Shown piece by piece: positions 7,450 through 55,284 of a stretch of DNA of 64,000 nucleotides (its first letter is position 1; each line of letters begins with the position of its first letter). Source of the stretch: an uncultured Gammaproteobacteria bacterium. GTDB taxonomy: Bacteria; Pseudomonadota; Gammaproteobacteria; Steroidobacterales; Rariloculaceae. The notes under the pieces were generated by a model. That model had not been told where the DNA came from. It saw only the letters and a list, made by a program, of their open reading frames with translations, and made no database searches. The position numbers were made by a program, and so were the translations under genes. The stretch covers positions 2,400 to 66,399 of the forward strand of contig CAYXNS010000008.1 of assembly GCA_964466315.1 (NCBI GenBank), given 5' to 3'.

Positions 7450-7477
7450 CACCCTCACTCGGGTACGTCGCCGGCGA

Positions 7478-8386: not shown

Positions 8387-8477
8387 TTCTCTTTGGGGTT
8401 TCTCTCTCGAAGCCACGCCCTCGCACCGGGAGACCAACCTATGATGTGGGACGGGAAAGCCCACATGAGGGGACAGT
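8356..8477 (-). promoter_or_regulatory. Leader copy L2 upstream of the ABC transporter operon (paralog of 5539..5660)
   Basis: Same inverted repeat ATGTGGG-N9-CCCACAT (8444..8450 / 8460..8466), the same downstream CCCGGTRCGAG...GGCTTCGAG block and the same ATGCCGAAGATG start as L1. Confidence 0.55.
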
Positions 8478-8612
8478 GTGGTGATTTGCCAACCGCGTTG
8501 TCAAGCTAGATGCGGACTGCTCCAGGCAAGCGGTTGACAACCGTTTTAGGGTGGAGATAGCCTCATCCCACAATGCGGTATATGAATTCTTGCTAGGCAG
8601 GATAGAAGCGCT

Positions 8613-8882
8613 GTGACCACGAGCACTCCAGCCGAACCGGCATCACACCCCCTTGATCGTTTCGCCGTCGAGGGGAAGAGCGCCGTCATCACTGGTGCCT
8701 CGGGAGCACTGGGAGCCGGCATCGAGAACATCGGTGGAGACCTCGATGCGGCCACAGGCAAGCGGTGCACATTTGCGGCCTTCCCATGGCGATGGACCGA
8801 GGGCGACGGATCCGGAGTCCGTGTCGTCGCCATCCTGGATCGCAACGGGAGCTACCGGATCAGCCGGGACGAAGGTACATAG
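8613..8882 (+). pseudogene. Possible remnant of a short-chain dehydrogenase/reductase (N-terminal Rossmann segment only)
   Basis: The 89-aa ORF begins LDRFAVEGKSAVITGASGALGAGI (SDR TGxxxGxG cofactor motif). After about 37 aa no further SDR motifs are seen, and no YxxxK in any frame before the next gene. Confidence 0.35.
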
Positions 8883-8902
8883 AATAGAAAGGAGACGCGA
8901 AG

Positions 8903-10411
8903 ATGTCGACGCAACACCAAGCGATGTCGGTCACCTCTATGCCGGGGGAAGTCCAGGAGTTTTTGCAGAGTGCGCCGGCACACATCGTCGGAGGTAAGAA
9001 GCGACCTTCCGGGTTGGGTGAGGCAATCGAAGTTATCGACCCGTCCACCGGAGACGTGATCTCATACATCGCGCGCGGGCGATCCGAGGATATCGATGCT
9101 GCAGTTCAGGCAGCGGACTCCGCGCTACGTTCCTCATCCTGGGCGAACGCGAGCCCGGCAACACGCGAGTCCCTGCTTCACCGGCTCGCAACGCTCATCG
9201 ATGAGAACATCGAGACCCTTGCCCTGCTCGAGTCGCTTGACAACGGGATGCCGTTGCCCCTTTCTCGCAACCTCGACATCGCAGGAGCCGCCGATGTCGT
9301 GCGCTATATGGCGGGATGGCCCACGAAGATTGCCGGGCGGACCATGACGTTCGAGAGTCCCGGCGGCAACCGGGCGATGGGCTACACCCGCCGAGAGCCC
9401 ATCGGTGTCGTCGGAGGCATCATTCCGTGGAACGTGCCGTTCATGTTGGCGATCTGGAAGATGGCGCCCAGCCTTGCCGCCGGATGCACTATCGTCCTGA
9501 AACCGGCCGAGGACACGTCGCTCACGGCGCTGTTCCTGGGCGATCTGGTCCTCGATGCCGGCTTCCCGCCAGGGGTCGTGAACATCGTCACCGGGACCGG
9601 GTCCGAAGCCGGCCAGCCGCTCACTGAGCACCCGCTGGTCAGCAAGATCTTCTTCACGGGCTCGACCACGACGGGGATCGCTGTCGGCCGAGCGGCAGCT
9701 TCCCACGCCAAGCCCGTGTCCCTTGAGTTAGGCGGCAAGTCTCCTACGATCATCTTCGCCGACGCCGACCTCGAGGCGGCTGCGGCCGGTGCAGCAGAGT
9801 CGATCTTCCTGAACTCCGGACAGATCTGTGTAGCCGGCTCCCGGCTGTACGTGCAGAAGAGCGCCTACGACGAGGTGGTGAACCGCGTTGCATCTCTCGC
9901 ATCGAAGCACGTCGTCGGGAGCGGCCTCGACCCGGCCACGACCCTCGGGCCGGTGATCAGTCAACGACACAAGGAGCGGGTCGATGGGTACATCGACGAC
10001 GCCGAGAACAACGGGGCCGAGCTTATCTCGAGCCACACGATCCCCGAGCAGGGTTTCTTCGTGGCTCCCACAATCGTCACCGGCGCCAGGCACGAAGCAG
10101 CGATTACCCAGGAGGAGGTCTTCGGTCCGGTGCTCTCGGTTTACCCGTTCGACGACGAGGCCGACGTACTGCAGGCTGCGAACGGAACCCCGTACGGGCT
10201 CGCCGCCACCGTGTGGACATCTAGCCTCGACCACGCGGAGGCGATGATCGACGGTTTGGAGTGCGGCAAGATCTCGGTGAACTCACCCGGCTTCCCGTAC
10301 CCCGGACTACCCGAGGGCGGCAAGAAGGCGTCGGGCCACGGAAGGGATCTCGGACCGGAATCGCTGGACGGTTATCTCCACTCGAAGTCTGTCATCTTCG
10401 AACGGTCCTGA
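8903..10411 (+). CDS. NAD(P)+-dependent aldehyde dehydrogenase
   Basis: 502 aa. ALDH motifs LELGGKSP, catalytic Cys in FLNSGQICVAGSRLYV, EEVFGPV, FTGSTTTG. Confidence 0.9.
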   Translation: MSTQHQAMSVTSMPGEVQEFLQSAPAHIVGGKKRPSGLGEAIEVIDPSTGDVISYIARGRSEDIDAAVQAADSALRSSSWANASPATRESLLHRLATLIDENIETLALLESLDNGMPLPLSRNLDIAGAADVVRYMAGWPTKIAGRTMTFESPGGNRAMGYTRREPIGVVGGIIPWNVPFMLAIWKMAPSLAAGCTIVLKPAEDTSLTALFLGDLVLDAGFPPGVVNIVTGTGSEAGQPLTEHPLVSKIFFTGSTTTGIAVGRAAASHAKPVSLELGGKSPTIIFADADLEAAAAGAAESIFLNSGQICVAGSRLYVQKSAYDEVVNRVASLASKHVVGSGLDPATTLGPVISQRHKERVDGYIDDAENNGAELISSHTIPEQGFFVAPTIVTGARHEAAITQEEVFGPVLSVYPFDDEADVLQAANGTPYGLAATVWTSSLDHAEAMIDGLECGKISVNSPGFPYPGLPEGGKKASGHGRDLGPESLDGYLHSKSVIFERS

Positions 10412-23455: not shown

Positions 23456-25006
23456 TTACCAGGTGTATCGAACACGATAACGCACGACGGCTTCGTCATC
23501 TTCCGGAACGACGACCGGAAAGTGCACGGTTCTTGCGTCCTGCCGATCGTACTCGTGGCTGGCCTCGACCACATCGTTATTCGTCCAGCGGAACATCGTC
23601 TCCTTGACGAATATCTCGACCGGCTCGGTCTTGTGATTCCGTAAGCCGATCTCGATCGTCTCCTCCATCCACCGGCGGTCGTAGTCGACCCGGAAATCGA
23701 CCTGGCGACGCTCGCCGACGACGTCGAATGCCGATCCCAGCTTGATCACGACCGTCTCGTCTTTGGGCGTATGGTCGATCACGTCCTCACCGATGAGTTC
23801 CAGCGTGTTGTCGGCCGAGTCAAGCTGGGACACGCGGATGCGGCCGGCAGGCAGCGGCATACCGAGACCGGCAGCTTCCTCGTTGTCGAATTCGATGTAG
23901 ACGTCGATTTTCGTGTTCATCGGAAGGCCGAGGTCCCGGTCGGTCGCGGGGCTGCCGTAGAACCCGTAGGCGGGCTCGAGGCCATAGTAGACGAGGCGCT
24001 TGGTCGCAGCGACTCGCTGAACTCGGGGAAGGAATTCTATCTGCTTGGTCGAGTTATCCGGGATTGCCGTCGTGCGCCCCAGCGTATACAAGTGAAACTC
24101 GAAGAAGCTTTGCTCATCGAATCCCTCGGTACTGGCCCGATCCACGGCGGCCGCCTCCAGGGCATACCTGACTCTCGGCATCGGCGGCGGCTCGGCGCGA
24201 TTGACGTCGCCGGCGATGAGCTTCAGCCGGGCATCCTCGTAGCTCGCACCCGAACGATTGAGAATGCTGACCCAGCCGCCGACGTCGAGATAGCCGCTGT
24301 TGGCATCCTCACCGTCGCTGTAAATCAGGTTGTAATCGGCCCACCATGTGAGGCCCGCAGTCTGATAGCTCACACGCACATCGTGCTCGCCGTCTCGTTC
24401 CGCCATCACATCCCAGATCAGTGTCGGCCTGGTCATGAGTCCGCCCGGGAGGTCGGGGAAGTGAATGTTCGAATAGTCTCTGATCGAGTGAATCCGACCG
24501 TCGTCGCTCGCCAGAATCAGGCCACCGTCAGCGCTTAGCAGTCTGCCTCCGATCTGGACGAGGTTCGCACCCGTTCCCTGGTCGACAGTGATTCGCTGAT
24601 CGATATAGCGCTCCATGAGTTTTTGCGCGCTGACAAGGTCGAATTGAAAGCTTTGTTCGAGCACTCGCGTCCCGTCCGGATCGGTGAGTGACTCGAAGTT
24701 GACGGTCGTCGGGTCGATATAGGCTGCGACATTACTGAAATTGAGGCGGTTGAGGCCGTCCTCGAGTTCCAGAGCGCGTAGATGTCGAACGACGGCATAG
24801 CCCGGGACGGGTCGGCCGTAGAGGTTGCTCTGGCCCTGAACGGGGCGATAGAGATCCGGTGCCACGGCGCCCGGCCGCGTCGTCGAGTAGATGGTGATTG
24901 CGGTCTGCGATGCGTCCTGAGCCTGACAGACTGCCGCACCGAAGCCGATCCCGCCGACGAGGCTCAAAATCGCGGTTGGTGTAACCAGCATTCGTCCATG
25001 GAACAT
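23456..25006 (-). CDS. Secreted DUF4139-like protein (MuiA-like family)
   Basis: Signal peptide. The central block VSYQTAGLTWWADYNLIY...GYLDVGGWVSILNRSGASYEDARLKLIAGDVNR matches my recollection of DUF4139 proteins. Confidence 0.65.
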   Translation of the reverse strand: MFHGRMLVTPTAILSLVGGIGFGAAVCQAQDASQTAITIYSTTRPGAVAPDLYRPVQGQSNLYGRPVPGYAVVRHLRALELEDGLNRLNFSNVAAYIDPTTVNFESLTDPDGTRVLEQSFQFDLVSAQKLMERYIDQRITVDQGTGANLVQIGGRLLSADGGLILASDDGRIHSIRDYSNIHFPDLPGGLMTRPTLIWDVMAERDGEHDVRVSYQTAGLTWWADYNLIYSDGEDANSGYLDVGGWVSILNRSGASYEDARLKLIAGDVNRAEPPPMPRVRYALEAAAVDRASTEGFDEQSFFEFHLYTLGRTTAIPDNSTKQIEFLPRVQRVAATKRLVYYGLEPAYGFYGSPATDRDLGLPMNTKIDVYIEFDNEEAAGLGMPLPAGRIRVSQLDSADNTLELIGEDVIDHTPKDETVVIKLGSAFDVVGERRQVDFRVDYDRRWMEETIEIGLRNHKTEPVEIFVKETMFRWTNNDVVEASHEYDRQDARTVHFPVVVPEDDEAVVRYRVRYTW

Positions 25007-25129: not shown

Positions 25130-27076
25130 CTACTCCTCGGGGGGAATCATATGCACGGAGACTTTGTTCACCGTTATGGTGTTGGTCGACTCGTCGTAGG
25201 CGCCGTAAGCTGCGAGCGCTCGGGCACCATTGAAGCCGCTCAGGCGCAATGCTAGCTCGGCCGTGAAGTCTTCGAAGCTCTTGAACAGTTCCACGTGTCC
25301 CGGTTCGGAGATGCCGTACAGTGACCGGCGCGAGTCGGTCGGCGCGATCAGCGGCGACCCCGGGAGCTCGTAGAGGCTCACGACTTGGCGGCCCAGTTTG
25401 ATGTGGTGGCGCTCGCCGATCTCCGAGTTCTTTAGATCCAGGACCAGACCGTCTGGGCCCATGCTCAAGAAGGGCGCGGTTGTGCCACCTTCATCCCAGC
25501 CGATGCCGAGCGCCGACGGAATGCTGCGGTGGTCGACGACCGTGCGGCCCTCGAAGTCGGGTGGCGCGATGCCGAACGGCGTCACGAAGCCCATCACCTT
25601 GGCAGCTCTGTCGGTCACGATATTCGTCAGGGCCAGCGTGCTCGTAGCGATCTCGTACTCGTTGGGATCGGCGTCGAGCTCGGCGGTCAGGCCCGTGCCG
25701 GCAAAGTTGAAGTGATCGATGCCCAAGCGGTCGATACCGCGCAGGGTCATATTGAGCTGGCTGGGCATGACGCCTGTGACCGTGCCGTGCAGATGCGTCA
25801 CGAGTAGTCGAACTCTACCCTCGGTCGCATCCAGTTCCGGCGCGATACTCGGCGCATCGACGTCGACAGGTTCGGCGGCATCGACAGGCTCGACATCGAG
25901 CGCGACGAACTGTCCGAAAGCGGCGATTCGTTGGCCGACGGAGATTGCGTCCTCGGTCAGCAGTTGATCGCGATCGGCGATCTTGAAGACCATCGTGCCG
26001 GGGCCGACGTTGACGAGAATCGTGCGATGGAAGCGTGCGGCCCGATCCCGCCTCACGGCGAATGCCCCTTTGACGGTGAGCTGATCGCTGCTGCGCGCCA
26101 CGACGTTGCCGTAGACCGCATCGATGTCCTCACCACCTACGCTATTGCCGGCATGAACGATTTGAGCCGTGAACTCATACTCGGCCACGTTCACGATCCC
26201 GAACGCGACCACGACGGTTCGCTCTTCGAGAAGGGAAAGTGCTTCCAGGCCGGCCTGGCCCTCATACATTGCATCGCCGATCTCGTAGCTCGTCTCTGCC
26301 GTAGTATTCACGACGACTTCACCATGCTCGCCGTCCCGCTGATGTCTCGGCCGTACGGCGACGGTATAGGTACTGGCGTCGAGATCGACGTCGATAAGCG
26401 CGCCTCTAAGGCGCGTCTCTTTCTCGTCGACCGGCTCGACTTCGGTGACGATATACGGCTGGGCCGTCACGCGAATCGGTGCCACGCCCGTGTCCACGAC
26501 GTGCGATGCCGCGAGATCGAAATCGACACTCAGAAGCGCCACTCGACCGCGTGTTACGACGAGCCGGTTATCCTCGGCCAGCCGGACCTCGAGGTCCGTG
26601 ATGCCGAGCGGTTGACCGTCACTGTTGACGACATCGGCCTGGACCATCTCTCCGCCGGCTTCGACGAAGATCTCAGCGTTGCCGTAGTCCAAGCGAATCG
26701 TGCCGCCGCTGATATCGCCGGGCGCCAACGTCACGGCGCTCAGAACCTCCGATAGCTGGACCAGTTGCGCGAAATCCACGCGCGTCGTCGCCGGCAGGGC
26801 CTCCACCGTGGAGCCATCCGGCCGCTGCAGCGTCAGCGAGAGAATGTCCACGGAATAACTGATGAAATCTCCCTCAGCGTCCGTGACGCTGACGAGAACC
26901 GTGCCGCATTCGCCGGACGTGGCCGGGTCAGTTGGGTCACAGGTGGTGGCGCTCGTTCCCGTGGTGGCCAGCGGGGAGCCTGATCCTCCTCCGCAGCCAA
27001 CGATTGAGAGGGCAAGTGCCACAATCGGTACAGAGCGCAAAAGCGCTCGCAAGGGGCTTCCTAGCATCCAAAACAT
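25130..27076 (-). CDS. Large lipoprotein with an N-terminal DUF4382-like beta-sandwich domain
   Basis: Lipobox LSIVGCGG. TVLVSVTDAEGDFISYSVDILSLTLQRPDGS...VDFAQLV...LAPGDISGGTIRLDY resembles DUF4382. 648 aa. Confidence 0.6.
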   Translation of the reverse strand: MFWMLGSPLRALLRSVPIVALALSIVGCGGGSGSPLATTGTSATTCDPTDPATSGECGTVLVSVTDAEGDFISYSVDILSLTLQRPDGSTVEALPATTRVDFAQLVQLSEVLSAVTLAPGDISGGTIRLDYGNAEIFVEAGGEMVQADVVNSDGQPLGITDLEVRLAEDNRLVVTRGRVALLSVDFDLAASHVVDTGVAPIRVTAQPYIVTEVEPVDEKETRLRGALIDVDLDASTYTVAVRPRHQRDGEHGEVVVNTTAETSYEIGDAMYEGQAGLEALSLLEERTVVVAFGIVNVAEYEFTAQIVHAGNSVGGEDIDAVYGNVVARSSDQLTVKGAFAVRRDRAARFHRTILVNVGPGTMVFKIADRDQLLTEDAISVGQRIAAFGQFVALDVEPVDAAEPVDVDAPSIAPELDATEGRVRLLVTHLHGTVTGVMPSQLNMTLRGIDRLGIDHFNFAGTGLTAELDADPNEYEIATSTLALTNIVTDRAAKVMGFVTPFGIAPPDFEGRTVVDHRSIPSALGIGWDEGGTTAPFLSMGPDGLVLDLKNSEIGERHHIKLGRQVVSLYELPGSPLIAPTDSRRSLYGISEPGHVELFKSFEDFTAELALRLSGFNGARALAAYGAYDESTNTITVNKVSVHMIPPEE

Positions 27077-27291: not shown

Positions 27292-29964
27292 GTGGCTAGG
27301 GCGATAAGCGATACCTTCCGGGTGGCCGGCATACCGTCGAAGATGACGAGTCGCTCCCAACAGACCACCTCGGGTTTGCGCGCAGCGGGACTCGATCTCA
27401 TCGGGACCCAGATCGCTGTCGACTTTCAAAATTTCCGCATCGATAACCTCGCGGAGCGTATCCAGGACGGCCTGCAGGCCCTGACAGAGGCTACGGGCGC
27501 CGATGCGGTATTCGTTGCGTTGCTGGACGAATCTGGCAAGACGTTCGAAGAGGTTCATATGGGCCGCGCGACGTTCTCGGCCTGTAATCCCGAGGTGCTC
27601 AAGGATCGCGAGCTCTCGGACTTCCCATGGATCAAGAGGCATCTCGAGCATCTACGGCTGCTCGAAATCCGGGACACGGGCGAAGTATCGCCGGCGCAGC
27701 TCGCAGACGCTACGGAGCTCGGAAAACTCAATGTCGGGGCATTGACGGCGGTTGGCTTCGAGATTGCCAAGCGGCCAGCGGGTCTCCTGGGCGTCTTCAG
27801 CTCGACGCCGAACCCGGATTGGGGCGCCGATCTGCAGATTACACTGAAGCTCGTGGGTGTCAGCTGTGCGAGCGGGCTCGAGCGGCTTGGGCTCGAGGAA
27901 GATCTGCTCATGGTTAAGGAGCGTGATCAACTCATCACGAATACCTCGAATGACGGCCTATGGGACTACGACGTCCGCGGCAACTCCATGTATTTCTCCC
28001 CGCGCTGGCGCACGATGCTCGGCTACGTTCAGGATGAAGAGATTCCGGAGTGGCGCTTTCTAGTGCATCCGGACGATATAGCTCGTGTGCAGGCTCAGAT
28101 CCGCGAACATCTCGAAGGCCACACGGCTCTCTTCGAGAGCGTCCACCGCATGCGCCACGCGGATGGAGGCTGGCGCTGGGTCCAGAGCCGGGTTATGGGG
28201 CGCGTCGACGACCAGCACCGGCCACGGCGTCTCGTGGGTGTCGAGACCGATATCACCGAGCGCAAGCTTTACGAAGAGGCGCTGTTTCGCGAGAAGGAGA
28301 GCGCGCAGATTACGCTGCAGTCGATCGGCGACGGCGTCGTCACGACGGACGCGGATGCGCGGGTCCAGTATCTCAATCCCGTGGCCGAGGAACTCACGGG
28401 ATGGGAACTGGACGATGCCGTCACAATGCCCATCGACGAGATCTTCAGAGGATTTCACGAGGAGACCTGCGAGCCCGTCGAGAATTCCGTTTCCGTCTCC
28501 ATGCGCCGTAACTGCTCGATCAAGTCCGTACGGCCCACGCTGCTCATTCGGCGCGACGGAAACGAGCTCTATATCGAGAGCACGGCCGCGCCGATCCGCG
28601 ACGCCGGCGGTAGGGTCACGGGCGGTGTCCTCGTATTCCACGATGTCAGCGAAGCCCGGGAACTCAGCAACAAACTGAGTTTCCACGCCAGCCACGACAC
28701 GTTGACTCATCTCGTCAATCGACCGGAGTTCGAGAAGCGCCTCGAGCGTGCGCTGAAGAGCGCCAAAGCCGAGGAGGCCTCGTACGCGGTCCTCCATCTC
28801 GATCTCGATCAGTTCAAGATCGTCAACGACGCCTGTGGGCATTCCGCCGGCGACGAGATGTTGCGGCAGCTCAGCGCGCTCTTGAAGTCGAAGATACGCT
28901 GGCGCGATACGCTCGCTCGGCTCGGCGGAGACGAATTTGGCGTCCTGCTCGAGAGCTGCACGCTCGAAGAAGCGATGCGGACCGCCGAGACGTTGCGAGA
29001 GACCGTCAACGAATTCCGTTTCGTCTGGGACGACCGGACTTTCCGGCTCGGCGTGAGTGTCGGTGTCGTGCCGGTTATCGAGATCAACGAAGACGTCGCG
29101 GCGCTCGTCAGTGCCGCGGACAGCGCCTGCAGTGCGGCGAAGGAGGCCGGGAGAAATCGCGTCTATGCCTACGAGGAGACCGACATCGACCTCATGAAAC
29201 GGCGTAAGGAGATGCAATGGGCGGCCCGGATCACGAACGCGCTGGACGAGAATCGTTTCGAGCTCTTCCGGCAGACCATCGAGCCGTTGCAGCCGGGCAT
29301 GAACGAAGGTGCGCATTACGAGCTCTTGTTGCGGATGAAGGATGAGCGCGGAAACCTGATTTCGCCAGAACTCTTCATCGCGGCGGCGGAGCGTTACGGA
29401 ATTACTCCGAGTATCGATCGCTGGGTTATCGGTCAGGCATTTCGCTGGTTGGTCTCGGAGGCCGACGAGCGGGAGCGCTTGTCGTTGTGCTCGATCAACC
29501 TGTCGGGCCAGAGCCTGACGGACGAGAAATTCCTGCCGTTCGTTATTGATCAATTTCAGATGAGTGGACTGAATGCCAAGCAGATCTGCTTCGAGATCAC
29601 GGAAACGGCGGCGATCGCAAGCTACTCGCAGGCGAATCGATTCATCCATGCGCTCAAGGGGCTGGGTTGCATGTTCGCGCTCGACGACTTCGGCACCGGG
29701 TTGTCATCATTCGGCTATCTCAAACACTTCCCGGTGGATTTCCTGAAGATCGACGGCAGCTTCGTGAAGGAGATCCTGCACGATCCGATCGATCGCGAGA
29801 TGGTGCGCTCGATCAACGAGATCGGGCATCTCACGGGTAAGAAGACGATCGCGGAGTTCGCCGAGAACGCTGAGATCATCACGATGCTGCGCGGCATGGG
29901 CGTCGACTACGCGCAGGGCTACGGTGTCGAAGTCCCGAAGCCCATGCTCCAGGCTGTCGCCTGA
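27292..29964 (+). CDS. GAF-PAS-PAS-GGDEF-EAL c-di-GMP signalling protein
   Basis: 890 aa. PAS blocks (NDGLWDYDVRGNSMYFSPRW; SIGDGVVTTDADARVQYLNPVAEELTGW), A-site RLGGDEFGVLL, and EAL-domain residues YELLLRM, NLSG, EITETA, DDFGTG, KIDGSFV, QGY. Start uncertain (GTG 27292 or ATG 27343). Confidence 0.9.
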   Translation: MARAISDTFRVAGIPSKMTSRSQQTTSGLRAAGLDLIGTQIAVDFQNFRIDNLAERIQDGLQALTEATGADAVFVALLDESGKTFEEVHMGRATFSACNPEVLKDRELSDFPWIKRHLEHLRLLEIRDTGEVSPAQLADATELGKLNVGALTAVGFEIAKRPAGLLGVFSSTPNPDWGADLQITLKLVGVSCASGLERLGLEEDLLMVKERDQLITNTSNDGLWDYDVRGNSMYFSPRWRTMLGYVQDEEIPEWRFLVHPDDIARVQAQIREHLEGHTALFESVHRMRHADGGWRWVQSRVMGRVDDQHRPRRLVGVETDITERKLYEEALFREKESAQITLQSIGDGVVTTDADARVQYLNPVAEELTGWELDDAVTMPIDEIFRGFHEETCEPVENSVSVSMRRNCSIKSVRPTLLIRRDGNELYIESTAAPIRDAGGRVTGGVLVFHDVSEARELSNKLSFHASHDTLTHLVNRPEFEKRLERALKSAKAEEASYAVLHLDLDQFKIVNDACGHSAGDEMLRQLSALLKSKIRWRDTLARLGGDEFGVLLESCTLEEAMRTAETLRETVNEFRFVWDDRTFRLGVSVGVVPVIEINEDVAALVSAADSACSAAKEAGRNRVYAYEETDIDLMKRRKEMQWAARITNALDENRFELFRQTIEPLQPGMNEGAHYELLLRMKDERGNLISPELFIAAAERYGITPSIDRWVIGQAFRWLVSEADERERLSLCSINLSGQSLTDEKFLPFVIDQFQMSGLNAKQICFEITETAAIASYSQANRFIHALKGLGCMFALDDFGTGLSSFGYLKHFPVDFLKIDGSFVKEILHDPIDREMVRSINEIGHLTGKKTIAEFAENAEIITMLRGMGVDYAQGYGVEVPKPMLQAVA

Positions 29965-40077: not shown

Positions 40078-42081
40078 TCAGGTCACCTTCATGCCGGGTG
40101 TCGCACCGCTGTCCACGCTCAACAGAAAAATCTCCTTTCCGCCCGGTCCACTGGCGAGGACCATGCCCTCGGACACGCCGAAACGCATTTTCCGCGGGGC
40201 CAGGTTATCGACAGTGACAACGAGGCGTCCTTCCAGGTTCTCGGGCTCGTAGGCTGAGCGGATTCCGGCGAAAACCTCCCGTTCGGCATCGCCGACGTCT
40301 ATGCGCAGCTTCAGGAGTTTATCGGCGCCGCCGACGTAACTCGCCTCGATGATCTTCGCGACCCGCAAGTCGATCTTCGCGAAATGCTCGAACTCGATCT
40401 GCTCGGGGCGATCCGGGTCGTTCTTCGCGGCGGTTTCATCGGAGTTCTGGGATTCTTCGATCACGGCTTGGATCTCCTTCACATCGACGCGTTCGAGCAG
40501 CGGCTCGAAGCGCTCGATCTCGTGTCCGAGTAACGGTGTCTGGACGTCGGCCCAGTTCAGTGGCTCGACGCCGAGAAAAGCCTCGGTGCGTTCGGCCACA
40601 CCCGGTATGACGGGCTTCAGGTAAATCATCAGTGAGCGGAACAGATTCAGGCCCAATGTCGCGATACCAACGACCGTATCGGACTCGTCGGCATTCCTGG
40701 CCTTAATCCAGGGCTTCTGCTCGTCGATGTACTGATTGGCTTGGTCGGCGAGTCCCATGATTCGTCTTACGGCACGCGAATAGTTTCGCGACTCGTAATC
40801 CGTGGCTATATCGTCCGCCGCGGCAGCAAAGCCAGTGAATAACGATTCATCCGGCAGTTTGTCTGCGAGGCGTCCGGAGTTGAGCCGGTCGATGAAGCCC
40901 GCGCAGCGACTACCTATGTTCACGAGCTTGCCGACGAGATCAGAATTCACTCGCGCGACGAAGTCGTCCATATTGAGGTCGATGTCGTCGGCTGCCGGCC
41001 CGAGCTTCGCCGCAAAGTAATAACGCAAGCAGTCGGGTTCGAGATGCTTGGCATAGGTTGAAGCATTGATGAACGTGCCTCTGGACTTCGACATCTTGGA
41101 TCCATCGACTGTCAGGAATCCGTGGACGAAGACTCCCGACGGCTTTCGGTAGCCGGCGCCACTCAATACCGCCGGCCAGAACAATGTGTGAAAGTAGACG
41201 ATGTCCTTGCCGATGACGTGATAGAGTTCGGCGTCGCTGCCTTCGTCCCAGAACTGCTCGAAGCTCAATTCCGAGCGCCGGCACAGGTTGAGAAAACTCG
41301 CCATGTACCCGATCGGCGCGTCGAACCAGACATAGAAGAACTTGCCCTTCTCGCCGGGGATCTCGAAGCCGAAGTAGGGGCTGTCGCGCGAGATGTCCCA
41401 GTCCCTTAAGCCCGCCTCGAACCACTCATCGAGTTTCCGGGCGAGCGCGGCATCGACATGTTGCGGTACCCAGGCACGGAGTTCTTCCTCGAAATCGCCG
41501 AGGCGAAAGAACAAGTGTTCGGAGTCTCTAACGGATGGTGTCGTGCCCGAGATCACGGAGACTGGGTTCTCGAGTTCCATCGGTGTGTAGGTCGCGCTGC
41601 AGTTCTCGCAGGAATCACCGTACTGATCGGGCGTGTGGCACACGGGACAACCGCCGCGGACATAGCGGTCCGGCAGGAACATCTGCTTCTTTTCATCGTA
41701 CGCCTGCTGGATCGTACGACGGTGGATATGGCCGGCTTCGAGCAGACTCTTGTAGATTGACGCGGTGAGTTCCTCATTCTCCGGAGAGTGTGTCGTCAAA
41801 TAGTTGTCGACACTGATTCGAAACTGGTCGAAATCGGCCTGATGGCCGGTAGCTATCTCGGCGACGAGTTCCTCCGGGGTTACGCCGGCTGCCTCCGCGC
41901 GCAACATCGTCGGCGTGCCGTGTGCATCGCTGGCACAGACGAAAAAGCAGCGTTGCCCGCGCATACGCTGGAACCTGACCCAGACGTCGGTCTGCGTGTA
42001 CTCGACGACATGCCCGATATGCAGCGGTGCATTGGCATAGGGCAGGGCGCAGGTAACCAGAATGTCTCGTTGTTGGCCCAA
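40078..42081 (-). CDS. metG: Methionine--tRNA ligase
   Basis: HIGH region [17 protein letters not shown], zinc knuckles [22 protein letters not shown] (SKMSKSRG), C-terminal tRNA-binding (EMAP/Trbp111-like) domain. Confidence 0.95.
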
Positions 42082-42191
42082 CTGGCGGTACTCCTTGGTA
42101 ACAGAAGGAGCGCCCGGCCGAACGCGCGATACTTCGCAGCAGGGCTGCCGCTCCGATCGCGATTATGCCACCGGCGTCTGAGGGATGCTTC

Positions 42192-43247
42192 TTAAGAGGC
42201 GTCTTTGAATTTTTCGAATTTGCTCTTATCGAAGGCCTGATGGTATGCCTCTTCGCCGGCGATGACTTTCCGGTCGAGGAGTTCCTGAATCGCCCCGTCC
42301 ATCGTTCGCATACCGCTGGCGCCACCCGACTGCATGACATTCTCGAGTTGCTCCAGTTTGCCCTGTCGAATCAAGTTTGCCACGGCGGAGGTATTGACGA
42401 GGATCTCGAGGATCGCGACTCGGCCCGAGCCGTCTTTCTTCTTGGCGAGTTGCTGCGAGATAACGCCGCGCAGAGACGTCGACAGCATATTGCGAATGTG
42501 CTCCTGCTTTTCCACGGGGAAGATGTTGATCACGCGATCTACGGTAGCTGCGGCGCCATTCGTATGTAACGTCCCCATGATGAGGACCCCCATCTCCGCG
42601 GCCGTCATGGCGATGCTCATGGTTTCCAGGTCTCTGAGTTCCCCGACCAGAATAACGTCGGGATCTTCGCGCAACGCGGATTGCAACGCCTCCGCGAATG
42701 TCTGGGTGTGAATACCTATCTCACGCTGGCTGATGAGACAGTTCTGGCGCTGATGCACGAACTCGATTGGGTCTTCGATCGTCAGAATGTGGCCATGCTG
42801 GCGCTGGTTGATGGCATCGATCATGGCCGCGAGCGTCGTGGTCTTGCCGGACCCTGTCTTGCCGGTTACGAGTATCAAGCCCTTATTCGCTTTCGTGAAC
42901 TCACGAACCGACTTCGGCATGCCGAGTTCTTCGAGCGTCAGGGCAGTCGATGGAATGCCGCGAAAGACGGCGCCAACGCCGTTCAGATGACGGAAGGCAT
43001 TTACGCGGAATCGGGCCAGGTCGGGGATCGCGAAGGCGAAGTCGGCTGAATCGTCCGCTTCGAACTGCGCGCGAGTCGCTTCGGACATTATGCCGAGGAG
43101 CGCATTCAATAATTGTTCACCGTCGAGCTTCTGATTCTGCAGACTGATCAAGTCGCCGTTCACGCGCATGCGCGGCGGATCGCCCGAGATCACATGCAGG
43201 TCCGAACCTTTGCGGAGGTGCATGCTACGAAGGAAGTCATCGATCAT
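42192..43247 (-). CDS. PilT-family hexameric ATPase (type IV pilus retraction ATPase-like), copy 2
   Basis: 351 aa. Walker A GKTGSGKTTT, Asp box ILTIEDPIEFVH, Walker B DVILVGELRD, His box GTLHTNGAA, C-terminal AVANLIRQGK (AIRNLIRE-like). Confidence 0.85.
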   Translation of the reverse strand: MIDDFLRSMHLRKGSDLHVISGDPPRMRVNGDLISLQNQKLDGEQLLNALLGIMSEATRAQFEADDSADFAFAIPDLARFRVNAFRHLNGVGAVFRGIPSTALTLEELGMPKSVREFTKANKGLILVTGKTGSGKTTTLAAMIDAINQRQHGHILTIEDPIEFVHQRQNCLISQREIGIHTQTFAEALQSALREDPDVILVGELRDLETMSIAMTAAEMGVLIMGTLHTNGAAATVDRVINIFPVEKQEHIRNMLSTSLRGVISQQLAKKKDGSGRVAILEILVNTSAVANLIRQGKLEQLENVMQSGGASGMRTMDGAIQELLDRKVIAGEEAYHQAFDKSKFEKFKDAS

Positions 43248-43248
43248 C

Positions 43249-44337
43249 TCAGGCGATCTCTACGTCCTGCAGGATGGTCGTATCCGTGACGAAGCGCTCG
43301 AACTTCTTCATGTCCGTCGCGTAGCGATACGCGTCGTCCGGATCCACGAGTTTCTGCTTGATGGCATCCAGGAGGGCTTGATCCATCATCTGCATGCCGA
43401 GATCCTTACCGGTCTGCAGCTGCGCCGGGATCTGATACGTCTGATCGGATGTAATGAGCTTCGAGATCGCACGGGTCATCACGAGGATTTCGTGGACGGC
43501 TCTGCGGTCCCGGCCGTCAGGTGTCTTGACGAGATTCTGTGTCACGACAGCCTGCAGGCTATGGGACAGGAAGCTCTTTGTCTGTTCACGTTGATCGGCC
43601 GGCAGCGCGTCGATAATTCGATCGATCGACTTTACGGCGCCCGTCGTATGTAGCGTTCCCAGGACCAGATGGCCGGTCTCTGCCGCGGTCATCGCCATGC
43701 TGATGGTCTCGGTATCCCTGAGTTCGCCGACGAGAATCACATCGGGGTCTTCGCGGAGAGCCGCCCGCACGCCTTCGGCGAAACTCGGGACATGCGTTCC
43801 CAGTTCGCGCTGTATGACCTGTGCCTTCTTGCTGTGGTGGACGAACTCAATCGGGTCTTCGAGGCTGATGATATTGAGATTTCGAGTGCCATTGAGATGG
43901 TCGATCATCGACGCCAGCGTCGTGGACTTACCGGTGCCCGTCGATCCGGTGACGAGCACCATTCCTTGATGGAGGTCGCAGAACTTCACTACGACGGGCG
44001 GAAGGTCGAGCGATTCGATCGTTGGGATCTTATTCGGGATATTTCGGAAGGTAGCGCCGATGCCGGTTTCCTTGCGAAACACGTTGGCTCTGAATCGCCC
44101 GCCTTCCTGGCTGACATAGGAAAAGTCCAGATCGTGACCCTGAGAGAAGCGTTCTTTCTGCGCCTCCGTCAGTATCTCACCGACGTAGCTCTCCATCTCG
44201 GTGTCGGCGAGGTCCCGGAATTTGATGGGCATGAGATCGCCATGCAGACGAAGCATTGGCGGGATGCCGACGGCCAGGTGAACGTCCGAGCAGCCTTGCG
44301 CGAGCCCGAGCTTCAAGAATGAGTCGATCCGTGCCAT
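43249..44337 (-). CDS. PilT-family hexameric ATPase, copy 1
   Basis: 362 aa. Walker A GSTGTGKSTT, IISLEDPIEFVH, DVILVGELRD, GTLHTTGAV. The AIRNLIRE-equivalent position is AISKLITS. Confidence 0.85.
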   Translation of the reverse strand: MARIDSFLKLGLAQGCSDVHLAVGIPPMLRLHGDLMPIKFRDLADTEMESYVGEILTEAQKERFSQGHDLDFSYVSQEGGRFRANVFRKETGIGATFRNIPNKIPTIESLDLPPVVVKFCDLHQGMVLVTGSTGTGKSTTLASMIDHLNGTRNLNIISLEDPIEFVHHSKKAQVIQRELGTHVPSFAEGVRAALREDPDVILVGELRDTETISMAMTAAETGHLVLGTLHTTGAVKSIDRIIDALPADQREQTKSFLSHSLQAVVTQNLVKTPDGRDRRAVHEILVMTRAISKLITSDQTYQIPAQLQTGKDLGMQMMDQALLDAIKQKLVDPDDAYRYATDMKKFERFVTDTTILQDVEIA

Positions 44338-44340
44338 CGA

Positions 44341-46740
44341 CTAGTTGAGTTGCGCGGCAGTTTTTTCGAGAGCAGCCTTGAGTTGATCCATGGAAGTGAA
44401 TCGCTTGTCTTTATCGACCGACATGGCTTTCGTCACGATATCGCTGAGTTCCTTGGAGACGTCGTCGTTGAGCTCATCTAGCGCTGTCGCCTTTCCCTGG
44501 ACATGCTGATACATGACTGACATGTGATCACCGCGGTTGTAGGGCGGCTCACCGGCCAGCATCTCATAGAGCATGACGCCAAGGCTATAGATATCGGCTC
44601 CGATGTCGACCTTCTTGCCGAGAATCTGCTCCGGCGCCATGTATTTCGGTGAGCCGATGACGTAGCCCGTCTTCGTGAGTTGCGTGTCGCCGCTGGATGC
44701 CGCCGCTGCAACGCCGAAATCTACGATCTTCAACAGCCCATCATCGTTGATGAGAATGTTCGCCGGCTTGAGGTCCCGGTGAATGATCCCCTGGTAATGC
44801 GCGATCTGCATTCCCGTGCAGATATCACAGGCATAGGAAACGGCTTTCTTGGCGTCCATCGGCGTATCGTCTGAAATTTCCCTCCCCAGCGTGTGGGACG
44901 GGAAATACTCCATCGAGATCGCGTAGGCGTTTCCAATGGCCAGGAAGTCATAGATGCGGATGACGTTCTTATGCGTGATTTTTCGAGAGTAGCGTAGCTC
45001 GTGAACGAAACGCTTCATCATCTCTTCATCAGAGGAGACGTTCGGGTTCAAGAACTTCAGGATGAGTTGGTCGTCGACCACGGTATCATGTACTAGCACA
45101 ACGGTCCCGAAGGCGCCCTTGCCGATTTTTTGAATGAACTCGTAGCGGCCTTCGATGAGGCTTCCTACCTTGAGTGCGCTCAGGTCGAATGAACTCGAAC
45201 TCGTCTTGGCGGTCGGTTCGTCGGTAGCACTCTCCTTGCCAGTGTCCGCCATGAGCGAGCGAGTGAGATCGTCTTCGGCGCTAGTAGAAGCCGGTCTGAG
45301 CTGTCCGGTCGCAGCTCCATCGCCCTCGAGTTTCTGTAATGTCTTGGCAGCAGCTTTCGCGATCGTGTCGCCGTGGCCGCTTGCGTGTTTTCGAATGAAC
45401 GCTCCCACGGCTTCCGTATGTTTGGAATCGGTCAGATTCGCGACGGCTTCGATTGCAGCAGCCTTGACCTGTTTCTCATCGGTCTTGACGAACGGGAGGA
45501 CCTTCTTGAGCGCGCGTTTATCGCCCAGCTTGCCGATCGATCTCAGCGCCGTTGGCACCGATTTGCCGCCCCGGCTCAGCATCTTGACCAACGCCGGAAC
45601 GGCCTTCGCGTCACCGATCTCCGCGAGAGCATCCGCCGCTCGCTCACTGACCCACCAATCTTCATCGGCTGTCGCTTCGATCAACTGGTCGACGGCGCGT
45701 GGATCGTGGCAGGTATTCAGAATTTCGATGGCGGCGCGGCGAACGTCCTCGTCTTTGTCCTTGATCAGCTCCAACACTGCGCTGACGACGCGGTCTCCAC
45801 CGATGCGTGCTAACGCGTCAGATGCACGGGCGCGGACCCACCAGTCTTCGTCGGAGATAGCTTCGAGTAGATGCTTGATGTCGTTAGTTGTGCCGATCTC
45901 GTTCAAGACCTCGACCGCCGCGCGGCGGGAGAATTCATTGTCGGCCTTGAGTGCTGAGATCAGGTGTTTAACTGTGTCCGGATGCTTGAGATTGACGATG
46001 ACGTCGATGGCTTTGTTGATGACGTCGACATCGGGATCTTCGAGCAGTGAGCAGATTAGTTCGACGTTGACGGCACCGTTTAACTGAGAGAGTCCAGTGA
46101 GCGCCGCCTGCCGAACCAGCTTGTTGTCGTCTTTCAACTGTTGCTGCAGGGCGTCCTGGACATCGACTCGCTCGAACTGAGAGATGACCTTGATCAAGTG
46201 CATCTTGACGACCGGGTCCTTCCCGTTCATACGCGCCAGCAAATCCGGTATTTCGGCCTCGCTCGCGAGGTCTTTGACTATCTTGAACACGGCGGTCTTC
46301 TCGCTGGGCTGCAACTCGTACACCTGAGCGAGAAGATGATTGATATTCAGCCGCTTTCGATGCGCCAATAGAATGTCAACCAGGGCGGATTTGGAATAGC
46401 TGTCCTCGGCGAGCAGATCGACCAATCGGTTGGGGTTGTATCGCCGACTGGACGAGAGCGCGGTGGTCGCTCCCGAAACGGTTTTCGGATTCGCATCGGT
46501 CAGGCCCTGCAGTATGGCGGGCAAGGCCTTGTCGTCCGCGAGCCTCGTGAGGACATCGACGAACTCCGCAGTCTGGCGCCGGTCTGCGCTGGCGAGGGCC
46601 TGAAGAATTTTCGGTACGCCTGCAGGACCGACCTGGCGAAGTTTGTCGAATGCCTTCTTGGCGCTGGGCGACGAGAGATCCGCTTCGCCTCGGATCTGCG
46701 CGATTAGTCGCTCTGCCTTGATTGCACTGATGAAGTTCAT
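44341..46740 (-). CDS. HEAT-repeat protein fused to a C-terminal Hanks-type Ser/Thr protein kinase
   Basis: Trimmed to MNFISAIKAERL. N-terminal ~480 aa are PBS-lyase/HEAT-like repeats (DEDWWVRARASDALARIGGDRVV; DEDVRRAAIEILN; DEDWWVSERAADALAEIGDAKAVPALV). A low-complexity linker follows. Kinase motifs IGKGAFGTV, LILKFL (Lys), HRDLKPANIL, DFG, SPKYMAPE. Confidence 0.85.
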   Translation of the reverse strand: MNFISAIKAERLIAQIRGEADLSSPSAKKAFDKLRQVGPAGVPKILQALASADRRQTAEFVDVLTRLADDKALPAILQGLTDANPKTVSGATTALSSSRRYNPNRLVDLLAEDSYSKSALVDILLAHRKRLNINHLLAQVYELQPSEKTAVFKIVKDLASEAEIPDLLARMNGKDPVVKMHLIKVISQFERVDVQDALQQQLKDDNKLVRQAALTGLSQLNGAVNVELICSLLEDPDVDVINKAIDVIVNLKHPDTVKHLISALKADNEFSRRAAVEVLNEIGTTNDIKHLLEAISDEDWWVRARASDALARIGGDRVVSAVLELIKDKDEDVRRAAIEILNTCHDPRAVDQLIEATADEDWWVSERAADALAEIGDAKAVPALVKMLSRGGKSVPTALRSIGKLGDKRALKKVLPFVKTDEKQVKAAAIEAVANLTDSKHTEAVGAFIRKHASGHGDTIAKAAAKTLQKLEGDGAATGQLRPASTSAEDDLTRSLMADTGKESATDEPTAKTSSSSFDLSALKVGSLIEGRYEFIQKIGKGAFGTVVLVHDTVVDDQLILKFLNPNVSSDEEMMKRFVHELRYSRKITHKNVIRIYDFLAIGNAYAISMEYFPSHTLGREISDDTPMDAKKAVSYACDICTGMQIAHYQGIIHRDLKPANILINDDGLLKIVDFGVAAAASSGDTQLTKTGYVIGSPKYMAPEQILGKKVDIGADIYSLGVMLYEMLAGEPPYNRGDHMSVMYQHVQGKATALDELNDDVSKELSDIVTKAMSVDKDKRFTSMDQLKAALEKTAAQLN

Positions 46741-46951
46741 GAATTTCCGCACACGAAGCCGCACCTCCAACCCCACGCTGGGGTCGAGTATCCTACATAA
46801 TCATTGACTGGATCTGCGTCAATTATGCCATACGGGTTTTCCGAAAATGGAACCTGCCTCACAGGTTCAGGTGTCCGTTAAAAAGGTTGGGAAGGCCTGG
46901 AAATGCTGATCGATAAGGTACAATCCCGGCCCCCATGGTAAGGACCCAGGT

Positions 46952-48049
46952 ATGAGCCAGGAAGCCTTGGCGGTATTGCGAGAACACCTCGGCGAATTCA
47001 TCGTCCCATTCACGGGTTTCCCGCTCAGCGAAGCGGGCAGCACGTTCGAGATCGAGTCCAGCGCGGGGATTCCCCAGATCAGCATCGATCTGGGATTCCC
47101 GGCGGCACGGAGCGGCGCGGAACTGATCGCCGCGCTGCAGGCGTATTGCAGTGATCTGGATTTACCGTCGGCGCCAGTGTTCTCATTGACCTCGACGATC
47201 TTGTCGCATTCCGTCCAGCACGGCCTCAAGCCATTGGAGGGGATCAGCAATCTGATCGCCGTCGCATCGGGCAAGGGCGGCGTTGGGAAATCGACGGTCG
47301 CTGTCAATCTCGGTCTTGCGCTGGCCCAGGAAGGCGCAAGTGTCGGCATTCTCGACGCAGACATCTATGGACCGAGTCAGCCGCGAATGTTGGGTCTCGC
47401 CGGCGAGAGGCCCGTTACACCCGACGGCAAGACGCTCGACCCTCTAGAAGCCCATGGCGTGAAAGCGATGTCCATCGGCTTTCTCGTCGAGGACAATCAA
47501 CCGATGGCGTGGCGCGGCCCGATGGTGACGTCGGCGCTCAACCAGCTGCTTACGGATACGAACTGGGGGGAACTGGACTATCTTCTCGTCGACATGCCCC
47601 CGGGTACCGGCGATGTGCAACTGACATTGTCGCAACGCGTCCCTGTCAGCGGTGCCATCATCGTGACGACACCCCAGGACATCGCGCTGGCCGACGCACG
47701 CAAAGGACTCGAGATGTTCCAGAAGGTCAACGTCCCCGTCCTGGGCGTCGTCGAGAACATGAGTGTCCATGTCTGTTCGGACTGTGGTCACGAGGAATCG
47801 ATATTCGGCCAAGAAGGCGGCGAGCGCCTTGCCGCAGAGTATGGATTACCGTTGCTGGGCGCACTTCCGCTGGACCGAAAAATCAGCGAGCAGACGGACC
47901 ACGGGCGGCCGACCGTCGTCGCTGAGCCCGATGGTGTGGCCGCAGAGGCCTATCGCCGGATTGCCCTTTGTGCCGCGAGCCATCTCGCCGCGACGGCGAA
48001 AGATTACAGCAATCTGTTTCCGACGATCACCGTCGAGGAAAGTGAATGA
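46952..48049 (+). CDS. apbC: Iron-sulfur cluster carrier ATPase ApbC/Mrp
   Basis: Deviant Walker [13 protein letters not shown], CxxC in [11 protein letters not shown]-terminal MIP18-like domain. Confidence 0.92.
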
Positions 48050-48612
48050 GCATCAGGTCAGATCGTTGGATTCGGCGGATGGTTCGCGACCACGGGATGA
48101 TAGAACCCTTCGAGAACGATCAGATTCGAACCGTTAACGACCAGCGCGTGATCTCATACGGAACGTCGAGTTACGGTTATGACGTTCGCTGTGCCGCCGA
48201 CTTCAAGGTATTCACGAATATCAATTCAGCGGTTGTGGACCCGAAGCAGTTCGACGAGTCGAGTTTCGTCGATAAGTGCTCTGACATCTGCGTGATTCCG
48301 CCGAACTCATTCGTGCTCGCAAGGACTGTCGAATATTTTCGTATCCCGCGAAGCGTGCTGACGATCTGCCTCGGGAAGTCGACCTATGCGCGCTGCGGAA
48401 TCATCGTCAACGTCACGCCGTTGGAGCCGGAGTGGGAAGGGCACGTAACGCTCGAGTTTTCGAATACCACGCCGCTTCCGGCAAGAGTCTATGCCAACGA
48501 GGGCGTGGCGCAGATGATATTTTTCGAGTCGGATGAGGTCTGTGAGACCAGTTATCTGGACCGTGGCGGGAAGTATCAGGGCCAGAAAGGCGTGACCCTT
48601 CCCAAGACATAG
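48046..48612 (+). CDS. dcd: dCTP deaminase
   Basis: 188 aa. [55 protein letters not shown] overlap with apbC. Confidence 0.92.
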
Positions 48613-53490: not shown

Positions 53491-54798
<1,308 letters not shown>

Positions 54799-54972
54799 TT
54801 GTAACCCTATGTTTAATAATATTTTTACTGCAGTATCTCGGTGAAGATGTTCATTCGTCCGAACCTGCAGTGTAGAAATCCTGCGAGCCGCTTGCCAGGC
54901 GAGCTCGAACTGGCTTGACGACTGTCTGAGGCCCCTGTTAGGTTGCTCTCGTTCGGAACCTCTAGCATAAGA

Positions 54973-55284
54973 ATGATTCACACACGAGTCACGAATCGAC
55001 TCCTGGTGCTCTTGGCTGCACTCGTCATCGTCGGGTGTGCCACGTCTCCGCCCGTTCAGGAGATGAGCGATGCGCGCCAGGCTATTGCGGCGGCCGAAGA
55101 TGCCGACGCTGCCCGGTTCGCGCCGGCGCCGCTCGATGATGCGAAACGTTATCTGAGCGAAGCCGAGACTCAGATTCGGGTCCGCTCGTTCAATCTCGCC
55201 CGCAAGAATGCGATCCGCGCCAAGAACAGCGCCGTGGATGCATTGCAGGCTAGTCAGACCGCGAACCAATCGGCGGAAGACTGA
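54973..55284 (+). CDS. DUF4398-like lipoprotein
   Basis: Trimmed to MIHTRVTNRLLVLLAALVIVGCAT (lipobox). Helical Ala-rich body (ARQAIAAAEDADAARFAP..LDDAKRYLSEAE). Confidence 0.6.
   Translation: MIHTRVTNRLLVLLAALVIVGCATSPPVQEMSDARQAIAAAEDADAARFAPAPLDDAKRYLSEAETQIRVRSFNLARKNAIRAKNSAVDALQASQTANQSAED

Follow-up and report, generated by a model that had tools for sequence, protein, structure and literature searches.

The kinase-ATPase-ATPase triad between metG and apbC

We analyzed a 64,000-nucleotide (nt) stretch of DNA from an uncultured gammaproteobacterium of the family Rariloculaceae (contig CAYXNS010000008.1; the whole stretch is called the window below), in which three tightly packed minus-strand genes encode a HEAT-repeat Hanks-type Ser/Thr kinase and two paralogous ATPases of the PilT family. 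The kinase gene (799 amino acids [aa]; 44341..46740) is followed after 3 nt by the gene for ATPase-1 (362 aa; 43249..44337) and, after 1 nt more, by that for ATPase-2 (351 aa; 42192..43247). The kinase start is placed at the ATG at 46740, in agreement with the invariant Met1 of its homologues, with a GTG at 46776 as a possible alternative.

The genes on either side provide context and lie outside this triad. On the same strand, 110 nt downstream, is metG, encoding methionyl-tRNA synthetase (MetRS; 40078..42081; Pfam tRNA-synt_1g, E=6e-153, and synteny), with rnfABCDGE-nth next. On the other side, apbC/mrp (46952..48049; ParA/NUBPL, E=8e-104) and dcd (48046..48612; DCD, E=5e-36) form a plus-strand pair (46952..48612) divergent from the kinase gene. 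A first-pass annotation of the window had described this layout, and its coordinates, both intergenic gaps, and the metG and apbC-dcd flanks are all reproduced here. It had also named mrp/apbC as the divergent neighbor of metG in Escherichia coli, which is borne out in strain K-12, where the two genes are 131 nt apart. The triad occupies precisely the divergent apbC(mrp)/metG junction, an ancestral arrangement that is intact in E. coli.

A soluble kinase with a HEAT-repeat solenoid

The N-terminal part of the kinase (aa 1-477; 45310..46740, minus strand) is a HEAT/alpha-solenoid region, presumably a docking scaffold, and the C-terminal part (aa 520-799; 44344..45183, minus strand) is the catalytic domain, as delimited by Pfam and homologue alignment. 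Pfam HEAT_2 matches six stretches of the protein (E=4.6e-53), and Pkinase matches aa 533-787 with 190.9 bits against a cut-off of 31.7 (E=3.5e-56). The catalytic motifs listed in the first-pass annotation (glycine loop, VAIK-type lysine, HRDLKPxN, DFG, and APE) are present as GKGAFG at 540, Lys562, HRDLKPAN at 654, DFG at 674, and APE at 702, and are invariant among homologues. In 16 close homologues, Lys562, the alphaC residue Glu581, HRDLKPxN (654-661), DFG (674-676), and APE (702-704) never vary, and 18 distant homologues all keep the Lys, Asp, Asn, DFG, and PE. Thr686, Thr689, and Thr691 of the activation loop (TQLTKTG, 686-692) are likewise invariant across 16 homologues, as are the DWWVRxRAADAL-type HEAT repeats. 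By profile score and by catalytic motifs, the alphaC glutamate included, the protein belongs to the Hanks-type kinases.

The AlphaFold model (predicted local distance difference test [pLDDT] 80.7) places 30 helices of aa 1-477 in one continuous solenoid (pLDDT 80-93), so that the repeated helical units expected of a HEAT protein are seen in both profile and model. A disordered linker (475-516) leads to the kinase domain (approximately 520-799), which has a flexible activation loop, and no membrane segment is present in the model. The kinase thus looks active and soluble, with a large scaffold domain, as far as motifs and model can tell.

Two distinct PilT-family ATPases

Both ATPases exceed the curated cut-off of the NCBIfam family TIGR01420 (pilT_fam; 319.1 bits), ATPase-1 with 418.5 bits and ATPase-2 with 444.2 bits. 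Profile searches in Pfam and NCBIfam, a check that the first-pass annotation had proposed, therefore uphold its Pkinase, HEAT_2, and PilT-family assignments alike. Both proteins have an intact Walker A, Asp box, and Walker B. The same annotation had credited both with a complete His box as well; this holds for ATPase-1, in which every NTPase box is intact and both His-box histidines are present, but not for ATPase-2, in which the first His is replaced (EMGVLIMGTLHT versus ETGHLVFGTLHT in Pseudomonas aeruginosa PilT) and the second is kept. At the AIRNLIRE-like motif, ATPase-2 reads AVANLIRQ, preserving A..NLIR. Both ATPases are catalytically plausible and PilT-like.

Both proteins are nearer to PilT than to PilU (323 versus 249 bits for ATPase-1 and 347 versus 278 bits for ATPase-2). 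ATPase-1 is 46.5% and ATPase-2 50.5% identical to P. aeruginosa PilT (PDB 3JVU), and the two are 43% identical to each other. PilT orthologues are generally more than 65% identical even among distant proteobacteria, and by this benchmark neither ATPase is a close orthologue of characterized PilT. Orthologues of ATPase-1 in other phyla are 49 to 67% identical to the window copy versus 45 to 48% to P. aeruginosa PilT; for ATPase-2, the margin is small (51 to 59% versus 49 to 52%). The gene order does not vary: in all 104 loci compared, the first ATPase gene best matches ATPase-1 of the window and the second best matches ATPase-2. Because of this order and of the best matches of the cross-phylum orthologues, the two ATPases are distinct, co-inherited PilT subfamilies and not products of local duplication.

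Vertical inheritance within the clade

The first-pass annotation had regarded the three genes as a cassette inserted into a conserved core junction and had called a lower GC content, from hand counts within the kinase gene, consistent with foreign origin. The site is indeed the ancestral junction, and the raw GC content of the triad (0.53 to 0.60) is lower than that of the flanks (about 0.58 to 0.65). However, the deficit lies in codon position 2 (0.38 versus about 0.45) and leaves position 3 unaffected, and therefore stems from amino acid composition. The GC content at third positions (GC3) is 0.71 to 0.74 in the triad, where the window norm is about 0.72, and the codon-usage fit (z=+0.65 to +1.63) is above that of the average window gene and comparable to that of metG. 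There is no tRNA gene in the window and no flanking repeat at the locus, where the Walker A region shared by the paralogues forms the sole long repeat. Thus, no mark of a genomic island is found here, whether atypical composition, tRNA or direct repeats, an integrase, or a patchy distribution.

Relatives of the kinase are encoded by at least 552 GTDB species in a scan of one genome per species. Loci with L numbers below are genome or metagenome contigs of such relatives; for each collection scanned, the best 80 loci were viewed, with up to 10 kb of context per side. The best 80 GTDB relatives (51 to 68% kinase identity) belong to Steroidobacteraceae, Woeseiaceae, and unnamed gammaproteobacterial metagenome-assembled genomes (MAGs), and all of those with sufficient flank have the arrangement apbC(-) / kinase-ATPase-ATPase-metG(+); approximately 45 additional metagenome loci are arranged identically. 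Among non-redundant loci with a kinase identity of at least 50% (up to 75%), both ATPase genes follow the kinase gene in 91 of 91, with apbC upstream in 85 and metG downstream in 88. Mean identity to the window proteins over 50 loci is 75% for ATPase-1, 67% for ATPase-2, and 56% for the kinase, compared to 55% for MetRS and 61% for ApbC.

Given the typical composition and the conserved placement across relatives, the triad is, on sequence evidence, a core and vertically inherited feature of an order-level clade. Any insertion into the mrp/metG junction is ancient and dates to the base of this clade. A recent foreign origin is contradicted by GC3, codon usage, the absence of tRNA genes and flanking repeats, and the clade-wide placement.

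The module recurs in unrelated contexts across phyla

In an exhaustive search of 1.84 billion representative sequences, the architecture of about 800 aa with HEAT repeats and kinase domain could be followed through about 12 subfamilies, with identities as low as approximately 26%. A kinase 33 to 42% identical to that of the window is immediately followed by two T2SSE/PilT-like genes in 13 loci whose surroundings are unrelated. These loci are from Inmirania thermothiophila (L085), "Candidatus Methylomirabilis" (L086), "Candidatus Eisenbacteria" (L087), and 10 more contigs of genome or metagenome origin, marine and sediment ones included (L088, L099, L103, L115, L131, L145, and L169 to L172). 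Neither apbC nor metG adjoins the kinase gene in any of the 13. The gene-neighborhood survey suggested by the first-pass annotation accordingly finds a HEAT-kinase gene directly upstream of two PilT paralogues not only in the 91 loci of the clade but also in 9 of 9 loci at 38 to 50% kinase identity. That annotation had proposed a self-contained module, which is borne out by 13 unrelated contexts in several phyla in which the kinase is linked to one and the same pair of ATPase paralogues. It had set against its proposal an ordinary locus, shared by relatives with typical composition and with a kinase that is not tied to the ATPases elsewhere; the locus is indeed common to relatives and of typical composition, yet the kinase-ATPase linkage holds outside the clade.

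We are highly confident that the triad is a functional module and neither an accident nor a recent insert. It is the minimal form of a widespread, multi-phylum module that, as far as we could find, has not been described before.

One of the 13 loci, a gammaproteobacterial metagenome contig (L099, 1-12610), has the order metG-rnfABCDGE-nth-module, with the gene for a 155-aa protein (see below), kinase, ATPase-1, and ATPase-2 at the far end of the block, a layout that suggests relocation within one neighborhood and no independent acquisition.

Accessory genes of distant clusters

Outside the clade, the triad is accompanied by genes for signaling proteins. A divergently transcribed gene for an FHA-GAF-HD-GYP protein is found in three loci (L085, L169, and L170) and is replaced by one for an FHA-GAF-cyclase in L172, an FHA-EAL protein in L086, and a cyclase-FHA protein in L103. 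A small protein with two tandem FHA domains is encoded downstream of the triad in L085, L169, L170, and L171 and upstream in L087; these small FHA proteins weakly match TIGR03354 (VI_FHA). A PP2C phosphatase gene lies downstream in L172, and L087 encodes an HD-GYP-PP2C protein. Components of a kinase-FHA-PP2C pathway are thus present in distant clusters (L085, L087, and L169 to L172) and not in the clade of the window, where tblastn found no PP2C in the window or its clade loci.

Directly upstream of the kinase gene in 10 loci, and nearly always outside the clade of the window, is a gene for a conserved protein of 153 to 164 aa (the 155-aa family; among these loci are L085, 7515-7994; L086, 7481-7942; L169, 9477-9944; L170, 6498-6959; L171, 6484-6948; L172, 6469-6963), which has 624 homologues, all annotated as hypothetical, and the invariant motifs HP.G, RFY, MDG, and NK.Y. 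It belongs to no NCBIfam family and has no sequence match in PDB, and its matches to DUF6812 are weak and below threshold. Its predicted structure (pLDDT 70) has two small beta-barrel halves, with nonsignificant Sm/Hfq-like and tandem-Tudor-like matches. An assignment as PilZ, raised by an RxxxR-like N terminus, found no support. Because the FHA and 155-aa families are absent from the window and the clade loci, the window carries the minimal triad.

Conserved putative regulatory elements

The apbC-kinase spacer of 211 nt contains a putative extended -10-like element, TGGCATAAT (TG-n-CATAAT; 46822..46830, minus strand), 81 nt upstream of the kinase start, a presumed promoter that is present in 98 of 101 unique clade spacers. 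TGGCATAAT occurs only twice in the window, both times on the minus strand. The second copy (42162..42170) lies in the ATPase-2/metG spacer and is also conserved in the clade, with TGGCATA[AC]T at 54 of the 93 unique ATPase-2/metG junctions versus 1.5% of random 170-nt segments. This copy is probably metG's own promoter; E. coli has TGGTACTAT approximately 45 nt before metG. Together, the two copies look like a duplicated metG promoter that brackets the triad. A few relatives have ATPase-2 and metG overlapping or at most 11 nt apart, so that read-through into metG is likely there.

A CRP/Vfr/Clp-like palindrome, AACCTGTGAGGCAGGTTCCATTTT, spans 46844-46867 (minus strand) and includes the candidate binding site TGTGAGGCAGGTTCCA (46848..46863). 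The pattern AAACCTGTGA-N6-(G)TTaCaTTTT is conserved only in the 19 to 20 closest loci (kinase identity of at least 58%); it lies 28 nt from the -10-like hexamer in 19 of these and 29 nt away in one, and in a loose form it matches 0.7% of random segments. It would be centered at about -40.5 from the predicted transcription start, which is a class II position. Transcription of the triad probably depends on the conserved extended -10 promoter and its CRP/Vfr/Clp-type site; the latter hints at cyclic-nucleotide control, an echo of the cyclic mononucleotide (cNMP) and cyclic di-GMP (c-di-GMP) enzymes of distant clusters.

A sigma-54 reading of TGGCATAAT was rejected by eye on the alignment, where the -12 GC is neither conserved nor properly spaced in relatives. 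Terminator-like matches in a generic scan were at chance level, and no structured RNA was found in either spacer by Rfam at E<=1. A further conserved block, (T/G)ATTATGT.GGAT (46788-46802, minus strand), lies in what is presumably the kinase mRNA's 5' leader, likewise with no Rfam match.

Comparison with known systems

PilT and PilU, which retract type IVa pili in P. aeruginosa (PA0395/PA0396; PDB 3JVU for PilT and 9N32 for PilU), resemble the ATPases of the triad in being an adjacent paralogous pair of the PilT family in which one partner has an AIRNLIRE-like motif and the other does not. PilU depends on PilT, a precedent for an obligate ATPase pair. Unlike PilT/PilU, the triad pair is only 46 to 50% identical to PilT, has the reverse order, and is in an operon-like arrangement with a HEAT-repeat kinase; moreover, ATPase-2 lacks the first His-box histidine, and each paralogue has its own cross-phylum subfamily. 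Extra PilT paralogues that supplement or diverge from the canonical retraction motor occur in Neisseria (PilT2), Synechocystis (PilT2), Thermus (PilT1/PilT2), and Myxococcus, and we know of none that is linked to a HEAT-repeat kinase.

The extended clusters, in which the Hanks kinase gene is accompanied by those for a reader (FHA) and an eraser (PP2C), are similar in composition to the threonine phosphorylation pathway in type VI secretion systems (T6SS; PpkA, Fha1/TagH, and PppA). PpkA, Fha1, and PppA gate an ATPase-driven nanomachine posttranslationally, a logic akin to that of the proposed module. In contrast to that pathway, the kinase of the triad is soluble with a HEAT solenoid and has no transmembrane or periplasmic sensor, the motors are of PilT type and not ClpV/TssM, FHA domains are often fused to c-di-GMP/cNMP enzymes, and FHA and PP2C genes are not adjacent in the window clade. 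Single parts of the kinase recall other proteins. Its HEAT region matches HEAT_2 and HEAT_PBS and, weakly, models of the HEAT-like proteins NblB and CpcE (of the PBS lyase type CpcE/F), and its catalytic domain alone matches PknB_PASTA_kin of the PknB/Stk1 kinases. These scores are far below the equivalog cut-offs, and the kinase has neither PASTA domains nor a membrane anchor. An analogy without homology is provided by the eukaryotic phosphatidylinositol 3-kinase-related kinases, in which a solenoid lies N terminal to the kinase and which are served by the paired hexameric ATPases RuvBL1/2.

Proposed function and alternatives

The combination of genes suggests a motor pair switched by threonine phosphorylation. 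The kinase would autophosphorylate on its conserved activation-loop threonines, and its HEAT solenoid would act as the scaffold that docks it physically onto the ATPase pair, with ATPase-2 as the PilT-like and ATPase-1 as the PilU-like partner of an obligate hexameric pair. It may then determine whether the ATPases, or the kinase itself and its partner proteins, carry phosphothreonine, and control could run in either direction, with phosphothreonine gating motor activity or motor state gating the kinase. In other lineages, the marks would be read by the adjacent FHA proteins and erased by the adjacent PP2C phosphatase, and coupled to c-di-GMP/cNMP turnover via the FHA-fused HD-GYP, EAL, or cyclase enzymes. 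Retraction of type IV pili, or their dynamics, would be the most likely process under such control. As a whole, this reading, in which a phosphothreonine signaling module gates its own dedicated pair of PilT-like motors, with pilus retraction or dynamics as the likeliest output, seems to us somewhat better than an even bet. That type IV pili are the target, taken separately, has at best an even chance; retraction is the most economical target because of the analogy with PilT/PilU.

Several observations weigh against this proposal. Pilus platform, pilin, and PilB genes are adjacent to the module in no context viewed. No type IV pilus gene was found among 36 window proteins scanned with Pfam, the remaining and mostly small open reading frames (ORFs) being left unscanned, nor in the Pfam-labeled synteny of two relatives over window segments of approximately 34 to 40 kb and 48 to 58 kb, and within this coverage the first-pass statement that the 64 kb hold no pilus genes stands. 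Woeseiaceae MAGs are reported to carry pilT, pilU, pilI, and pilJ, from which twitching motility was inferred (PMC12175321); these PilT/PilU calls may be the triad ATPases themselves. The motors depart from PilT motifs, as the first His-box position of ATPase-2 is Val or Ile throughout its orthologues and subfamily and the AIRNLIRE motif of ATPase-1 is degenerate (AISKLITS) and PilU-like. Neither an FHA ORF nor a 155-aa gene is present in the window or within about 10 kb in any clade locus. The linkage also has limits, as the most divergent HEAT-kinases (25 to 30% identity; L090, L092, L093, L094, and L097) stand alone without ATPases, a branch at 32 to 36% identity (L124, L125, L132, and L149) has PP2C next and no ATPases, and below about 35% identity the ATPases are mostly absent. 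Finally, the promoter and the CRP-like site were assigned by their match to a consensus, and a generic promoter scan gave no sigma-70 site.

The main alternative retains the module but removes the pilus: a cytoplasmic signaling or remodeling machine in which a PilT-like hetero- or paired hexamer would have a different substrate, or would sense energy or nucleotides upstream of the kinase, the output being cyclic-nucleotide turnover. A pilus gene is adjacent in 0 of 13 independent contexts, and the recurrent partners are all soluble signaling proteins (FHA, PP2C, HD-GYP, EAL, cyclase, and the beta-rich 155-aa protein). The modest identity of the ATPases to PilT and a conservation above that of MetRS point the same way, as does the presence of the module in "Ca. 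Methylomirabilis" and "Ca. Eisenbacteria", for which no twitching record was found in a literature search that was itself uninformative. However, in model organisms canonical pilT-pilU also lies apart from the remaining pilus genes, and the missing pilus neighbors therefore say little. Both ATPases are above the curated threshold of the PilT/PilU family, ATPase-2 retains most of the PilT-specific AIRNLIRE, and no neighbor suggests an alternative substrate. We consider this alternative unlikely, although worth keeping in view. We give a similarly low probability to its more specific form, in which the kinase and a heteromeric PilT-like motor would be one pilus-independent complex that interconverts ATP-driven conformational work and phosphothreonine marks, the latter read by FHA-fused c-di-GMP/cNMP enzymes. 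If true, PilT-family ATPases would gain a new function with such a complex.

That the locus is simply a pilT-pilU retraction locus with a kinase as a chance neighbor is very improbable. It has two PilT-family genes in tandem, public records label both as twitching motility protein PilT, and PilT, PilU, PilI, and PilJ are reported in Woeseiaceae MAGs, but the kinase-ATPase-ATPase linkage across phyla in unrelated contexts largely refutes chance. Furthermore, the order is reversed, with the AIRNLIRE-bearing paralogue second, both paralogues are about equally distant from PilT and nearer to it than to PilU, and the short intergenic gaps suggest translational coupling with the kinase. Least credible of all is a recent foreign cassette or anti-phage defense island at metG/apbC. 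In its favor are the slightly lower raw GC content, the interrupted core junction, and matches of the kinase domain to the PADLOC kinase models PD-T4-6 and mad6; against it are the typical GC3 and codon usage, the lack of tRNA, integrase, and flanking repeat, and an identical placement in approximately 90 species-level relatives with conservation above that of housekeeping genes. The PADLOC matches cover the generic kinase fold only, and the ATPases give marginal P-loop matches. A known anti-phage system was rejected on this basis, since PADLOC-DB 2.0 gave only generic kinase matches and no component-specific matches for all genes.

Annotation and significance

In public records, the ATPases are called "twitching motility protein PilT" or "PilT/PilU family type 4a pilus ATPase" and the kinase "HEAT repeat domain-containing protein." In Povalibacter uvarum (L025, 12532-14752), both ATPases are "twitching motility protein PilT" in RefSeq and IMG. 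Since both carry this label, metagenomic surveys of Woeseiaceae and Steroidobacteraceae, which are abundant in sediment and soil, may infer twitching from genes of a different system.

The component families are all known, and their conserved combination is, as far as we could find, not described. A full-text literature search returned no paper joining the terms PilT, HEAT-repeat, and threonine kinase and none with DUF6812, and searches for kinase control of PilT and broader searches for the module itself gave only papers that seemed unrelated by title or abstract. The extended cluster connects Hanks-kinase signaling with c-di-GMP/cNMP turnover through FHA fusions, a connection for which we found no description in literature searches that were not aimed at it. 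The module bears on two open questions, the switching of PilT-family motors and the role of "extra" PilT paralogues, and offers a conserved genetic handle in which kinase, readers, and eraser are tied to one motor pair. Cultivable hosts include Povalibacter uvarum, Steroidobacter spp., Woeseia, and Inmirania thermothiophila.

Other observations

The lone HEAT-kinases of 25 to 30% identity (L090, L092, L093, L094, and L097; genes at about 8001-10390 or 6014-8410 of their contigs) lie among housekeeping genes such as clpB, a hydantoinase-like gene, and pta/pntAB, and in L132 and L149 two HEAT-kinases stand in tandem with PP2C. Elsewhere in the window, a minus-strand ORF at 54547-55269 clearly departs from the usual codon choice (z=-2.5, GC3 0.62) and translates into an Arg/Ser-rich sequence. 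This ORF is probably not a genuine gene and may overlap the region of a small arsC-like gene. Two adjacent minus-strand genes (23456-25006 and 25130-27076) encode proteins of 516 and 648 aa that have signal-peptide-like N termini and no Pfam match at E<=1e-5, and this pair adjoins a plus-strand gene for a PAS-PAS-GGDEF-EAL protein (27292-29964).

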